A stretch of 64,000 nt of DNA from Escherichia coli O157:H7 (GTDB lineage: Bacteria > Pseudomonadota > Gammaproteobacteria > Enterobacterales > Enterobacteriaceae), in NCBI RefSeq assembly GCF_013167455.1, contig NZ_CP038328.1. One strand, written 5' to 3'. The position numbers are program-made. How positions within the stretch are numbered: position 1 is the first letter of the stretch; every line of letters starts with the position of its first letter. Shown piece after piece: positions 1 through 6,000 of this stretch.

Positions 1-3000
1 CGCACCCGCCCAGCGGTCAGAACGCAGGGCAAGACCAATTTCCACATTGGCATGTTTTGACATGAAGCCACGAAATGCTTCCTCACCAGCCTCCCGGGCT
101 TTACGGTACTCCCGGTACAGAAAAGCCTCATCCACCGAATAACCGAGATTCGGGTTAACCATGGCGAGGTTTTCCATCAGCAGGTGAGCCCCGCTTTCCA
201 CCATTTCAGGAGGATGCTCAAAAATCACCGGCAGAAAGTGCGGATCATGAATTTTGCCGTCACGGACATCCCGGGCGTACTGCAGTTTCTGTCTGAACAC
301 CCCGGCTGGCGGCTCATTCGACTGGGTGGTCGTATACACCACAAACCCTTCCGGGCGGGAGGCAAGGCCGCCTATGGCTTCACGTAACATGTCCTCCGCT
401 TTGTACTGCTTGCCAAATAACCACAGTTCATCAATCAGCGTCCCCACGGACTTGATACCGGATACCGTATTCGGATCGGCAGCCACCACCTTCAGGGTGG
501 TGTCCGTCACCCTGTGGGTGATGGTCCGGATATGTGTCTGCACCTGACAGAGGTCATCCAGATCATCGTCCCGTCGTACCATATCCCTGGCAGGGTTGAA
601 GGCGTTAGCCGCCACCTCCACGGTCGGGGCCAGAATGGTGTAGCCCGCCGCCTGCCGCCAGTTCAGTAACAGCGCCGTCATCATGATCCCGGCAGCCAGC
701 GTGGACTTGCTGTTTTTCTTGGGGATAAGGATAAAAACTTCCTTGATATGGCGTACACCGGTCTGCGCATCGTAGGAGCCAAACAGGGCCGCCACCAGGT
801 CAAACACCCACTGTGCGCAGGACTCCCCGAACGTCGGGCTGCCCGGTGCATCCACAATCCGCAGTTGTTTAAAAATCGCCAGGGCATGTGCGGCCTGCTC
901 CGGATAAATCGGAGCCGGAATAATCGACAGCCCCTTTTTCAGGCGCTCTGCCCAGTCCGGGCAGGCCGTGCTCCACACAGGTATCATCCGTTGCCCTCAT
1001 TATCATTATTCACCACCAGGCGGGGTGGTGGTGGCACCGCAAAACGGTTAGCCGCTTTTTTCGCCGCGTCACCTTTTGCCGATTTTTTACCGGCATCCCC
1101 TTTTTTGTGGTGCGTGAACTGCGCCAGCTTATAAGCCGCATCCAGCGCCAGCCTGGGGTCGGTATTAATGTTCTCCACCAGAAGACGCCCCATCGCTTTC
1201 ACCGGATCGGGAAGACCGTCCTCCATATACTCAATACCAGGAGATATCACCACGGGCGGTGGCATCTCCGGATTTGTTTCGTCCGGCTGTGGTATTGCAG
1301 CCGCCTCACGGCGACGGGGTTTATCCTCCGGCTCTGATTTTTTCTGCCGGTAAACAGGAACCTCATCCACCTCCACCGTCTCGCACTGTTTACGGGCTAT
1401 AAACGCAAGCACCTCCGGATCTTTTGCCAGCTGCGAGCCTTTAACCCTGGCTGTCTTCGCCGAATAACCGGCGGCAAGGGCTGACGCTGTTTTGTTTTTC
1501 CCGGACATGAGCGCCAGCGCAAATTTTCGTTTTTGCGTTGTCAGCACAGCCTCCTCCCGGGTCCAGAACGCACTCAGCCGGGTATGGTTCAGCCCATTTT
1601 TCCCGGCGTCTCATGCCGCAAATGTTAACTGCTGCCTGGTTAACATTTGCTGAAAAAGCCTGTTAACATTTTTTCCGCACAACAAACTGAATAATAAAGA
1701 TAAAAACCGCAAAAATGCCCGGGCAGCCAGTTAACATGTTAACTGCCCTGAAACGGGAATTTTTTCTCTGCGTGAGAGGGGGCGCGGTGTCCAGGGCGAT
1801 CGTTTTTTTTCGCCGGATGATCCCCCCCGGGTCTGGTCACAGGCCAGTGATTCCGTCGGCCCTGAGCGTGCCATCAGGAAGCTCAGGCAACGTCGGATCA
1901 GGCATACCACTCGCCGCTTCACTCGCTGACTTCTGGCGATGGCATTCAGTACAGAGGGTCCAGAGGTTCGTCTCCTCATTACCACCACCGAACTGAAGTG
2001 CAATGCGGTGATCGAGTTCACTGTCACAAAGGTCAACCACGCGTCTACAGAGACAACAGTGTCCGGCATCCCTCCGCCAGATACGACGTTTGAGGGAAAC
2101 CCGGGCACTGCCACTGACACGACGCTGTTCCCCCCTCAGGACATTTATCCGCCGGGTGTTCAGAGTTTTGATTCTGCCCGGTAACGTACGAAGCACAGCC
2201 ATGTAAAATCCTCGCCATATAGCTTGTCACCAGAGGAAAGAAAATGTCATCGAAAAACCGGCCCCGCAGAACAACAACCCGCAACATCCGATTTCCAAAC
2301 CAGATGATTGAACAAATTAACATCGCTCTTGACCAGAAAGGTTCAGAAAATTTTTCTGCGTGGGTCATTGAATCTTGCCGCCGGGAGCTGGCAGCAGACA
2401 TAAAATATGCCCGTCAGTTGACTATAAAAAAGAATGATACACAGTATGCTCTGCGATGGCTGTTCATATAACTATTTCTTTATATTGCTGAATTTATAAA
2501 AACTCACAGACATTAGCTGTATTAATTCCGAATTGAAATAATCAGCCATATAGAATAAAAATAAAGCATAACAATAATAATCTTCTACCCAATCAGTACA
2601 TTACTGCTGTGACTCCAACACGGCAGTTTTTTTATTGAACAGATTCCAGTTTCTTCCACCATCGCACCGGACGGGCGACCATGAGGGGAGAACGCCGCGC
2701 TCCGTTTACGCGGTAAACCCCGGTGTGTATCGTTTTTGATTATCCCCGCACACTCTCGCAGAGGAGTCTCCCTGTCGGGCTGCGGTCTCTGTTAATGCAG
2801 GAATACGGCGACGATACGGCGCATCAGCAAAACTTAGTTCAGGCACTGAGTGCGGATATAGTCCTGTGCCCCTTCCAGCTGCTTCTGCATTGTCATCAAC
2901 CGTTCTCTGAGGATGAAATAATCCCGTTCAGCGGTGTCTGCCAGTCGGGGGCCGGTTGCATTATCCACGCCGGAGGTGCCGGTGGCTTCACGCACGGTAC

Positions 3001-6000
3001 CGGAGCAGGTGGCGTTGATCCGCAGGCGCTTACGACCAGCGGCAACATCAGCACGCAGAGTTTCATTTTCAGCTCTCGCATCGGCTAACTCCCTCGAGTA
3101 TTTTGCATCGAGCGCAGCAACATCACGCTGGCGCACCTGCATGTCAGTAATGGTGGCATTCGCCTGTTCCAGCTCTCTGGCTTTTTTATCGCGCTGCGCT
3201 TTGTAGGTGAGCGCGTTGTCACGGTAATGGTTTGTTGCCAGCCACAGCGCACCACAGCCAACCGCCAGGACAATAATCACCACACACAGAACACGGTTCA
3301 TCTCTCTTTCACCCCACCAGTCCCGATAACGTCAGGACTCGCCAGGCGGTGGAAAAGAAAATGGCAACCAGCATGACTAAAAATGAAATGCCGACAAGTA
3401 CACAGAGGCTCTTCACCAGCGTTATGAGTTTATCTGATATCATTAGCCACCCCATCAATCCGCCTTTGTTATTTTCCCTTTGCCTGTATCAGCCAGGACA
3501 AAATCAATCAGCATATTCGCTTCATTTACCAGCGTACGGATTTTTGATACATGCGCGGCTTTAACCTGTTTCCACTCATTCAGCCCGGTAGCAAACACAC
3601 TGGCAATGTTTTTATCCCGTTTCATGTCAGCACAAGCCTGGTTGAGTTCTTCCATCACGCTCATTTTACGGGGATTAACGACAAAACCCTTCGTCCAGTA
3701 CTCGTAAAGAACATCGTCGCACTCTTCCTGATACCGGATGACCTTATCGCGGATTTCGGGTTTTACTTTGTTGGGATTAATGGTTTGTAGCCAGCCGGCA
3801 AGTTTTCGAAGTGGCATGGACACCATATTGCGTTGTTTCCCATCCTCAGCAACCATAACGATTTCCGTTATAGTTGACGCAAAACGCTGTCTTAACTTAG
3901 CCAACTGTGATTGCCAGGCCAGCCCCATCCCCGCAACGACAGGTTTCATGGGAACGTATGGTTCGCCATTATGGTTAACTACATAAAGAGAGTTGCCGTG
4001 AAACGGCACGGCCATCATATTCATCGGTTATTTCCTTTTAGTGATGAACCTTGTCTCACAGGAATCCAGCCCACAGAAAGGCACCGACAGCCAAACCGGT
4101 ATCCTCAAGGGTCATCCTGAAAGGTTCTGTGTTGTGAGATGCGCGTGAGATGCGCAGAAATGACAAAGGCATCATTACGGTGCCTGAGTGTTAAACAACT
4201 GTTTTGACTTTATTCACTTACATTTTGCCAATTTGCAGGATTTCGTGTTATCCGTCCATGTAAGCAAACCTCATTTTTCAGCAAAATATTCTGCTTATCT
4301 GTCGATTCCCCAGCACGCCAGCGCGCTCTCCTGGTCACGACGGGATACCTGACCGTAACAGTTATTTGAGCGAATACGGCAGTCCCTGCCACCGTCCTTA
4401 ATCCACCAGCGAATCGCTTCGCAGGCACCTTTTCGATCTCCTGCATTAATCCGTCTGTAAAACGTCGACGGGAAACACTTACCGGGGCCAATGTTGTACG
4501 GACAGAATGACGCGATCCCCGCTTTCTGGGGTTCGGTCAGCGGCACTCTGATGTTTTTCTCCACCCATGCCAGCGCCTTATCACGCTCAATGGCGTTAAC
4601 CCGGTCGCATTTTTCCTTCGACAGCTTCATGCCAGGAATAACAGGCTTACCATCCCCCCGGGTGGCTCCACGGCAGATGGTCCAGATACCCGCACCATCA
4701 CGGTATGCTGTGGTGTGGTTACCTTCCTTTTCATCCAGAAACTGGTCGAGGATTTCAGGCGCAGACGCCCCTGCACCAATCAGCGCCAGAACGGCAGCCG
4801 ACAGGCCGTATCTGATTTTTGCGTTCATGGATATTTATCAGGGTTTATCGATTTCAAATCCCTGGATATGTTAAGTCTTCAGGCCAGCGGTGGAGTCTTC
4901 AGAGAACCCGTAATTATTCCCGGTAGTTTTCCTCTGTAGGTTATCAACACATCCTGCGCCTCTAAAATTACGGGGCGCTTTTCCGGCAACGGACCATCCC
5001 CTTCACATAACCCGGCAGCAACATCCATGAAAAACTGCTTCGCCTGCTTTTTCGCCTCAGCTTCGTAAAACTCCAGCGTGGCACCTTCAGTACGGTCAAG
5101 ACTAATCGCCACATCTGGCAACAACAGTGACGGATACCCACCAATTTCCGGTGCCACAGTAACAGTAATCTTATCCGGGTAATTATTTATCCCTTTAACA
5201 ACCAGTTCGTATTTTTTCTTCATCACTTTACTCTCCCCGCGCCGCCTTACGCCGGTCTTCTTTAATCTTGAAATACAGGTTCGTCAGATATGTCAGCAGC
5301 CCAAACAGCAGACTCCCCAGCACGCCTATCGCCACCCACTGGGACGGAGAGACTTTGTCCAGCAGCTGCAGTAACCAGTATCCCGTCCCCACCGCTGACG
5401 TGGTGTATGACACACCCGTTGTGATTTTTTCCATCTGGTACATACCCCGTCTCCCGTTATCCGGAAGCTGACAACAATAAAAAAGCCACCAGTTAACTAC
5501 TGATGGCTCTGATAACTCATGCAGGCGTCTCAGACGACCCACTGACACTACCGGTGAGTTTAACGATACCTTCCATTTGACTGGCTCACTTTTTATGATG
5601 ATGCCGGTGCATTTATCTCCAGCACCAGACTTTCTATCTCAACGCCATACGCTGCATTTTTTGTAACATCCGTCAGCGTCAGCGCATTCAGTCCCAGTGT
5701 CAGACTGTCTTTTATAACCTGGAATGCCGGGCCAGCCACTCCATTCAGTTTCGGAGTAACCGTGGCACTGCCGGCGGTGAACACCAGCTCCAGCGTCTGC
5801 CAGTCGTTACCGTAATCGCCGAACTCCCCCAGCTTCGTGTTTCCGGCTTTCCTGTGATGCATCAGATTCACTCTGCCGTCAGTGGTCTGAGTGAAGTACG
5901 ACATCAGGAACGGATTACCGGTACCCGTCATCGCCACACCATCAGGAACGGGAGCATCCGTATACAGATAAATCCCCAGCCCGAACTGATTGTTGGTCAG

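Follow-up and report, generated by a model that had tools for sequence, protein, structure and literature searches.

A phage-21-type lysis cassette with accessory genes in an Escherichia coli O157:H7 prophage, and a candidate cis-regulatory leader RNA upstream of its Ant-like gene

Phage 21 has a compact lysis cassette, S-R-Rz-Rz1, with genes that abut or overlap. Related cassettes of Escherichia coli carry extra genes. In the Shiga toxin (Stx) phage VT2-Sakai, which is of the 933W type, the order is S-R-ant-Rz. The cryptic Qin prophage of E. coli K-12 (essQ-ydfR-rrrQ-rzpQ/rzoQ) has ydfR between the holin and endolysin genes. The Stx phages BP-4795 and YYZ-2008 have S-YdfR-R-ant-(orf48)-Rz. 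In a survey of 279 Stx phages, the cassette of pinholin and signal-anchor-release (SAR) endolysin was conserved beside stx, and Ant phams were present in 126 phages (PMC8136144). Here, we describe a cassette of this kind in 64,000 nucleotides of E. coli O157:H7 DNA (contig NZ_CP038328.1, assembly GCF_013167455.1), hereafter the window. It occupies positions 5443–2834 of the minus strand, on which all features below lie unless stated. We consider the genes that phage 21 lacks and a structured RNA leader that precedes ant.

A 3-kb stretch containing the cassette is 100% identical to many O157:H7 chromosomes, and at least 80% of this region is carried by 572 of 5426 complete E. coli genomes. In strain EDL933 the cassette belongs to an stx-negative lambdoid prophage with every gene annotated, orf48 as hypothetical. 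BP-4795 and YYZ-2008 share the gene order at 97–99.5% DNA identity and already name S, 'YdfR family protein', R, 'ant' and Rz; BP-4795 annotates orf48 as hypothetical (ORF50). Unlike BP-4795, YYZ-2008 and VT2-Sakai, the window prophage has no stx. Instead, a nanS-p-like esterase gene (636 amino acids, 5593–7503), two tRNA genes and a DNA methylase gene lie upstream. VT2-Sakai has an Ant 100% identical to ours in the same slot, but no ydfR. Conversely, Qin has the same holin-YdfR-endolysin order and the same 4-nt junction, but no ant module and a spanin of another type (DUF2514). With phage 21 the window shares the holin family, including identical length and both start codons, the endolysin family with its catalytic triad, a SAR-like N-terminus and an embedded spanin pair. 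The gene arrangement is already known, and the extra genes are still functionally uncharacterised. The first-pass annotation of this DNA had implied that the cassette was unusual. Each extra gene is annotated in place in deposited Stx-phage records, and both of those it listed occur in BP-4795 and YYZ-2008. The cassette is a textbook pinholin, SAR endolysin and spanin system of Stx-type prophages and is nothing new in itself.

The lysis backbone is of the canonical phage 21 type, as first described. The S21-type class II holin (pinholin) has 71 amino acids (5228–5443; Pfam PF04971, E = 8.5e-33, above the curated cut-off). It aligns with S21 without gaps, and is 75% identical to phage 21 S, 80% to K-12 EssQ and 96% to VT2-Sakai S. 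Transmembrane domain (TMD) 2, residues 34–55, is the sole hydropathy window of at least 1.5; the N-terminal TMD1 is rich in Gly, Thr and Ser, weakly hydrophobic and under this threshold. The ratio of nonsynonymous to synonymous substitution rates (dN/dS) is ~0.1. A dual start at MYQM had been proposed. Both M1 (5443) and M4 (5434) are kept. However, residues 2 and 3 are Tyr-Gln, as in VT2-Sakai, rather than the Lys-Ser of phage 21 and K-12 Qin (MKSM), and the extra N-terminal positive charge (Lys2) of the S21-type long form is absent. In phage 21, the antiholin character of the longer product (S21-71) comes from Lys2.

The endolysin belongs to the T4-lysozyme family (177 amino acids, 4295–4828; PF00959, E = 1.5e-24). 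It is 90% identical to K-12 RrrQ, 97% to VT2-Sakai R and 35% to R21, with an invariant E35/D44/T50 triad. Its N-terminal segment, YGLSAAVLALIGAGASAP, is Ala/Gly-rich and weakly hydrophobic (maximum hydropathy 1.69, residues 5–27). These properties fit a signal-anchor-release domain, and release from the membrane is predicted. The i-spanin Rz (155 amino acids, 2834–3301; PF03245, E = 4.9e-50; phrog_13) has a predicted TMD at residues 1–25. The o-spanin lipoprotein Rz1 (61 amino acids, 2896–3081; PF06085, E = 1.7e-21) lies inside Rz; it starts 220 nt into that gene and is therefore in the +1 frame. Rz1 shares 73% identity with its phage 21 counterpart, and its signal peptide carries the lipobox VSAC (Cys20). 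Open reading frame (ORF) lists and family scans with Pfam and PHROG recovered every gene in the initial inventory, namely the MYQM holin, a 115-amino-acid ORF, the endolysin, an antirepressor-like gene and Rz/Rz1, at the positions first given. A third conserved extra gene, orf48, had been overlooked where two were counted.

An HNH gene and then terminase genes follow the cassette, and the esterase, tRNA and methylase genes precede it. Hence, the cassette is placed in a lambdoid late operon. We conclude that the region is very probably the standard late-operon lysis cassette of an stx-negative lambdoid O157:H7 prophage, with the extra genes as dispensable accessory cargo in two slots. They are read as dispensable because relatives with otherwise collinear cassettes go without them. 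By homology to phage 21, Q-antiterminated transcription would read through the cassette and the pinholin would accumulate, then depolarise the inner membrane. Depolarisation would free and activate the membrane-tethered endolysin, after which the Rz/Rz1 spanin would disrupt the outer membrane. The first slot, between S and R, holds ydfR, whose small soluble product may act on RNA metabolism late in infection. The second, between R and Rz, holds a mobile module in the window: a terminator-like hairpin and a ~115-nt structured leader come first, followed by genes for a short Ant-like protein and a small membrane protein.

We compared the R-Rz interval of 69 loci with intact R and Rz. The slot is hypervariable. 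Gaps of 297–298 bp (14 loci) hold one small ORF with a C-terminal transmembrane (TM) segment. Those of 335–489 bp (32 loci) hold small TM ORFs, mostly including an orf48 homologue, and those of 642 bp (4 loci) also hold small TM ORFs. The window-type ant module accounts for gaps of 988–993 bp (16 loci). Finally, gaps of 1197 bp (3 loci) encode a 231-amino-acid KilAC/ANT-domain protein (PF03374) unrelated to the window Ant. Altogether, 50 of the 69 relatives lack an Ant-like gene in this slot. The first ~94 nt past R are common to all variants; in the window this spacer is 4201–4294, and blastn of the R-Rz gaps gave 86–93% identity in every class, with or without ant. Loci with either Ant type share a further ~180-nt leader, and homology returns at orf48. 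The window gap between the endolysin and ant genes is 270 nt.

The small gene orf48 (3309–3455; phrog_4906, E = 1.5e-30) encodes a 48-amino-acid single-pass membrane protein with a hydropathy peak of 3.04. Its ATG shares bases with the ant stop codon (TGATG), and 7 nt separate its end from Rz. About three quarters of related cassettes, whether they carry ant or lack it, have a homologue (62–80% identity) immediately before Rz, and dN/dS is 0.25–0.49. Other small ORFs with a C-terminal TM segment (phrog_1115, phrog_4493 and phrog_6632) also fill the R-Rz slot in most related cassettes.

Outside this slot, the place of the ant module differs between genera, always within the late region and ~170 nt past the preceding gene. 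In Photorhabdus it follows Rz and in Salmonella a gene for a GH108 endolysin. In Hamiltonella, genes for an S21-type holin and a lysozyme come before it. That the extra genes might be late-expressed morons, as first suggested, agrees with their presence/absence polymorphism amid near-identical flanks (ant in 16 of 69 loci; ydfR absent from phage 21 and VT2-Sakai). A hairpin with a T-run precedes the ant leader. However, a consensus scan found no sigma-70-like promoter for ant on the minus strand, and the strict sense of 'moron' fits only in part.

The leader emerged when the ~170-nt spacers were aligned. Each comprises a variable terminator-like hairpin, then a conserved block of ~115 nt that ends just before the Shine–Dalgarno sequence. 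In the window, the hairpin (GGCACC..GATGCC with a T-rich tail, 4158–4184) was read from the sequence and forms the 5' edge of the ant module; the consensus terminator scan of the window did not call it. In Photorhabdus, Salmonella, Hamiltonella and most IMG/VR copies, this position has a hairpin and T-run of differing sequence. The conserved block lies at 4041–4156, the ant Shine–Dalgarno sequence at 4037–4033 and ant itself at 3455–4024.

RNAalifold, applied to 31 non-redundant sequences, gave a hairpin (H0) and three helices (P1–P3). To this structure we added a pseudoknot between the H0 loop and the segment between P2 and P1. In the window, TCTCAC (4150–4145) pairs with GTGAGA (4059–4054). 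Other copies pair CCGAAA with TTTCGG, TTCACA with TGTGAA or CTGCA with TGCAG. In the alignment (A8), pairing holds in 94.6% of cells, and compensatory changes on both sides occur at 16 of the 33 pairs. Shuffled alignments gave 6.2 ± 1.8 such pairs (none of 500 was as high) and slid controls gave 4–10. All five pseudoknot pairs covary. Switches from A-U to G-U are frequent and fit pairing on the sense strand only. An alternative helix joins the 5' strand of P2 to the segment just 5' of the Shine–Dalgarno sequence. Here, 5 of 10 pairs are compensatory, for example TTCAGAAATG/CATTTCTGAA, and the 3' strand ends 3–5 nt before the Shine–Dalgarno sequence. The leader has two mutually exclusive pairings, both supported by covariation, which is the pattern of a switch-like cis-regulatory leader. 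Because one of the two abuts the ribosome-binding site, the leader may give ant its own post-transcriptional control within the late transcript.

Two other descriptions of this interval were set aside. First, treating the whole R-ant intergenic region as one structured RNA gave a fold z-score of -0.53; structure became visible only after comparative alignment. Second, a 39-amino-acid ORF (orf39, 4056–4175) matches phrog_16173 but is probably not a gene. Indels of 1–2 nt break its frame in the homologous leader of locus L036, and it lies in the covarying RNA structure.

To define how widely the leader occurs, a pattern from its 3' part was searched in IMG/VR and matched at least 120 stretches. 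These yielded at least ~66 unique leaders, each 13–26 nt upstream of an ORF of 140–255 amino acids. The genes concerned, in Enterobacterales phages, encode P22_AR_N, KilAC/ANT, KilA-N (with or without ORF11CD3 or P63C), Phage_pRha, Bro-N or HNH_3+AP2 proteins. A covariance model of the leader (R1) scored the window copy at 71.5 bits (E = 4.4e-16). In phage P22, a copy that was not in the seed scored 120 bits between gene 15 (Rz) and rha (ORF201), at 2501–2619 of locus L217. Other copies include those at 3858–3981 of L095 and 3869–3985 of L093, and weaker ones lie upstream of TerB-like and KilA-N genes. The P22 rha region resembles ours in having the leader between the last lysis gene and a regulator-like gene of the late operon. 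It differs in that the downstream gene encodes Phage_pRha rather than P22_AR_N, and in that the module follows Rz rather than separating R and Rz.

Two or three leader-plus-gene modules can occur in tandem on the same strand of one IMG/VR contig (L165, L143, L169, L140 and L199/L200). The unit of cargo that the leader marks is thus repeatable. R1 had no match in cassettes without ant. The window-type leader is present in 879 of 5426 E. coli genomes, with up to 10 copies per genome. A species-wide genome scan with the 3' pattern returned mostly chance matches; it is used here as a negative control and a rough guide to taxonomic range, not as a census. Among the 80 pattern matches listed, R1 scored only those in Citrobacter, Photorhabdus, Xenorhabdus and Rosenbergiella; ~72 chance matches in unrelated phyla gave no model match.

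We then asked whether the element was already on record. Searching Rfam 15 with the window copy, the P22 copy and seven other loci returned no family, only noise, even at E ≤ 10 on short stretches. Among the matches listed, phage and E. coli RefSeq records annotate no RNA or regulatory feature at the leader; several phage records place a coding sequence over part of it and nothing else. Our literature search covered papers outside subscription, and the leader, neither annotated nor catalogued as far as found, may be new. One neighbouring RNA is catalogued. An isrJ match (RF01393; 54 bits in L142) adjoins a leader copy on its upstream side (L142, 1605–1680; L141, 3344–3414), and the isrJ terminator appears to act there as the upstream hairpin of the module. 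We rejected the idea that the leader belongs to the isr family (IsrK/IsrJ); isrJ adjoins one copy, and the leader itself has no isr match.

The ant leader is, with moderate probability, a candidate for an undescribed family of cis-regulatory RNAs. A wider proposal is put forward tentatively, and we would not yet bet on it. The leader could represent an uncatalogued family of pseudoknotted, two-state cis-regulatory RNAs that gate regulator-like cargo genes (P22_AR_N Ant, KilAC/ANT, KilA-N, Rha, Bro-N and HNH-AP2) in the late regions of Enterobacterales temperate phages, including P22 and Stx phages. The modules would be insulated by terminators upstream and sometimes tandem, and a signal, possibly linked to the Rha phenotype that depends on integration host factor (IHF), would decide whether potentially toxic genes are translated from the late mRNA. 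With regard to this signal, a passage in PMC4936722, citing Henthorn and Friedman, states that rha of P22 and phi80 is harmful to lytic growth in hosts without IHF, 'which regulates the rha gene'. This IHF-dependent phenotype is only a lead to what the leader senses. Several points weigh against the proposal. Helix P1 (GAACC/GGTTC) is invariant and so has no covariation support. The same alignment both yielded the structure and tested it, and the seed was picked by an exact 3' pattern. In addition, the window leader is a divergent member of the family, and its single-sequence fold is no stabler than shuffles (z = -0.6). If confirmed, the leader would be a new class of regulatory RNA that P22 shares and that reaches 10 copies in a pathogenic E. 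coli genome. Antirepressor-like genes together with KilA, Rha and Bro genes would be under its control; how these genes work and are regulated has long been a loose end, the decades-old IHF-dependent Rha phenotype included.

Could the product of ant be a true antirepressor? If made late in induction, it might inactivate repressors of other lambdoid prophages in the same cell, of which O157 has many, or stop repression from being restored, and thereby couple the induction of one prophage to that of others. We regard this as doubtful. The window protein (189 amino acids) matches P22_AR_N (PF10547, E = 1.4e-45; phrog_524), and its N-terminal 126 residues are ~50% identical to P22-like Ant, as for an antirepressor; the identity is confined to residues 1–126. 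P22 Ant has ~300 residues and its gene sits in the immI region under Arc/Mnt and sar control. In contrast, the window protein is shorter, its gene is in a late operon, and its C-terminal part matches ORF11CD3 (PF10549, E = 5.5e-06) and no other P22 Ant domain, so that the full P22 Ant architecture is not reproduced. In relatives, this slot is filled, after the same leader, by an antirepressor-type gene of another kind (KilAC/ANT), which suggests selection for that function; the occurrence of up to 10 leaders in one E. coli genome also speaks for an antirepressor. However, KilA-N, Rha, Bro-N and HNH-AP2 genes, none of them antirepressors, stand behind this leader too.

Ant is soluble and near-invariant among these loci, and a 188-amino-acid architecture of this kind is widespread in Enterobacterales. 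Its AlphaFold2 (AF2) model has a mean predicted local distance difference test (pLDDT) score of 68.6; no solved sequence homologue was found, and the fold search was uninformative, matching only generic helical hairpins. PADLOC gave no matches for YdfR, Ant, orf48 or orf39, and NCBIfam has no model for any of the four. For ant inside a lysis cassette, the papers found give genomic descriptions only (PMC8136144 and PMC3430580) and no experimental report. More broadly, our search found no experiment on the extra genes of this cassette, which also counts against our overall reading. PMC2669165 was rejected as a report on ant, since 'antirepressor' there means Cro.

The product of ydfR, and possibly also the orf48 membrane protein, might modulate lysis timing by acting on the pinholin or SAR endolysin. 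Such a protein might, for instance, partner the invariant charged tail of the holin in the cytoplasm, or serve as an antiholin in the membrane. We consider this unlikely, and nothing in our analysis or in the searchable papers supports the role in lysis timing that the first-pass annotation had raised. The genetic arrangement is what makes it attractive. The ydfR gene (4879–5223; DUF1327, PF07041, E = 5.5e-46; phrog_406) starts 4 nt past the holin stop codon, with its Shine–Dalgarno sequence within the last holin codons, and appears translationally coupled to the holin gene. The holin-ydfR-endolysin placement is the same in 80 IMG/VR loci and in mEp460, Evi, PhiR42_1 and K-12 Qin. Moreover, the 4-nt junction with an S21-type holin gene was kept at every locus examined, including those with alleles at 41–56% divergence, and survives allele reshuffling; in Evi the holin is 98.6% identical and YdfR 41%. 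The lack of Lys2 could mean that the holin needs another regulator, and orf48 homologues occur before Rz in most related cassettes under purifying selection. However, neither phage 21 nor VT2-Sakai has YdfR, and about three quarters of the phage records with an S21-type holin lack it as well (this holin type is found in 436 phage records, YdfR in 101 and full-length Ant-like proteins in 264). YdfR is also soluble, with no membrane segment by hydropathy.

The only biochemical data on YdfR point to RNase E and RNA. A 2026 paper reports, from two-hybrid and pull-down assays, that residues 1–72 of K-12 YdfR bind the N-terminal catalytic half of RNase E (residues 1–597), and that YdfR preparations carry DNase-resistant nucleic acid, that is, co-purifying RNA (PMC13232886). 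The interacting 72 residues are the part conserved in the window protein, which is 46% identical to K-12 YdfR over residues 1–74; the K-12 C-terminus is unrelated. Because the K-12 homologue binds RNase E and co-purifies with RNA, we suggest, with low confidence, that YdfR is more likely to take part in RNA metabolism late in infection than to act on lysis proteins. Some results fit this less well. The RNase E interaction is known for the K-12 protein only, few transcripts were altered by K-12 YdfR overexpression (PMC13232886), and strict adjacency to the holin gene could equally mean a lysis-related role. In addition, a K-12 envelope-integrity screen, as that paper cites it, flagged ydfR. This would favour an action on lysis, but polarity on the lysis genes next to ydfR could account for the phenotype. 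YdfR, whose gene keeps its fixed place beside that of the holin in many E. coli prophages, K-12 Qin among them, now has a biochemical lead in RNase E binding that could be followed up in phage. How lambdoid phages control the decay of host RNA late in infection is poorly understood.

The YdfR family is tiny, with 54 clusters at 50% identity among 1.84 billion representative proteins, and its source names are Escherichia and Shigella only. At low divergence, dN/dS is 0.25–0.6. In the AF2 model, residues 4–73 form three strands and a helix (pLDDT 70–86) and the C-terminus is disordered. Nothing was found in a PDB profile search, and Foldseek against PDB gave no match below E = 0.29. YdfR alleles are mosaic, combining two N-terminal types, a conserved PEKRP...LPG..TGSLK segment and optional C-terminal extensions of 60–70 residues that take the protein to 176–183 amino acids. 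The ORF had initially been placed at 5226–4879, with 115 residues, and called unknown. It is present, but an ATG at 5223 is the likelier start and gives 114 residues, as RefSeq annotates. RefSeq names the identical protein 'YdfR family protein', a family present in K-12 Qin too. As for its conservation in related phages, on which the initial reading had been made to depend, the outcome is mixed: the gene is conserved where present but dispensable, being absent from phage 21 and VT2-Sakai.

Lastly, the conserved sequence upstream of ant is quite improbable as a DNA-level feature, such as a recombination 'linker', a promoter or operator, or a remnant of orf39; the same ~180 nt do flank unrelated cargo genes, as a module boundary would, P1 never varies and orf39 has its PHROG match, but the compensatory changes in 16 of 33 pairs, pseudoknot included, well exceed both sets of controls, the many A-U to G-U switches preserve pairing on the sense strand only, non-triplet indels break orf39, the consensus scan found no promoter-like site, and the ~72 chance pattern matches in other phyla gave no model match. 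A structured RNA leader remains our preferred reading of this sequence.

The remaining features lie upstream of the holin gene. Between it and the esterase gene, the consensus scan called a strong terminator-like hairpin with a T-run (5482–5510), consisting of a 12-bp stem followed by TTTTATTGTTG; we infer that Q-modified RNA polymerase reads through it. The two tRNA genes (7970–8202), upstream of the late genes, encode tRNA-Arg (TCT) and a tRNA with a CAT anticodon, which ARAGORN assigns to Met and RefSeq to Ile. Between the tRNA and esterase genes, Rfam places a match to the STnc100 small RNA (sRNA) at 7652–7860 (175 bits, E = 7e-41). On the plus strand, 7591–7650 matches the anti-GcvB sRNA AgvB at 56.6 bits, against a gathering score of 56. 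A weaker match to AsxR (46.8 bits) overlaps the AgvB site; AgvB and AsxR are prophage-encoded anti-sRNA families of enterohaemorrhagic E. coli.

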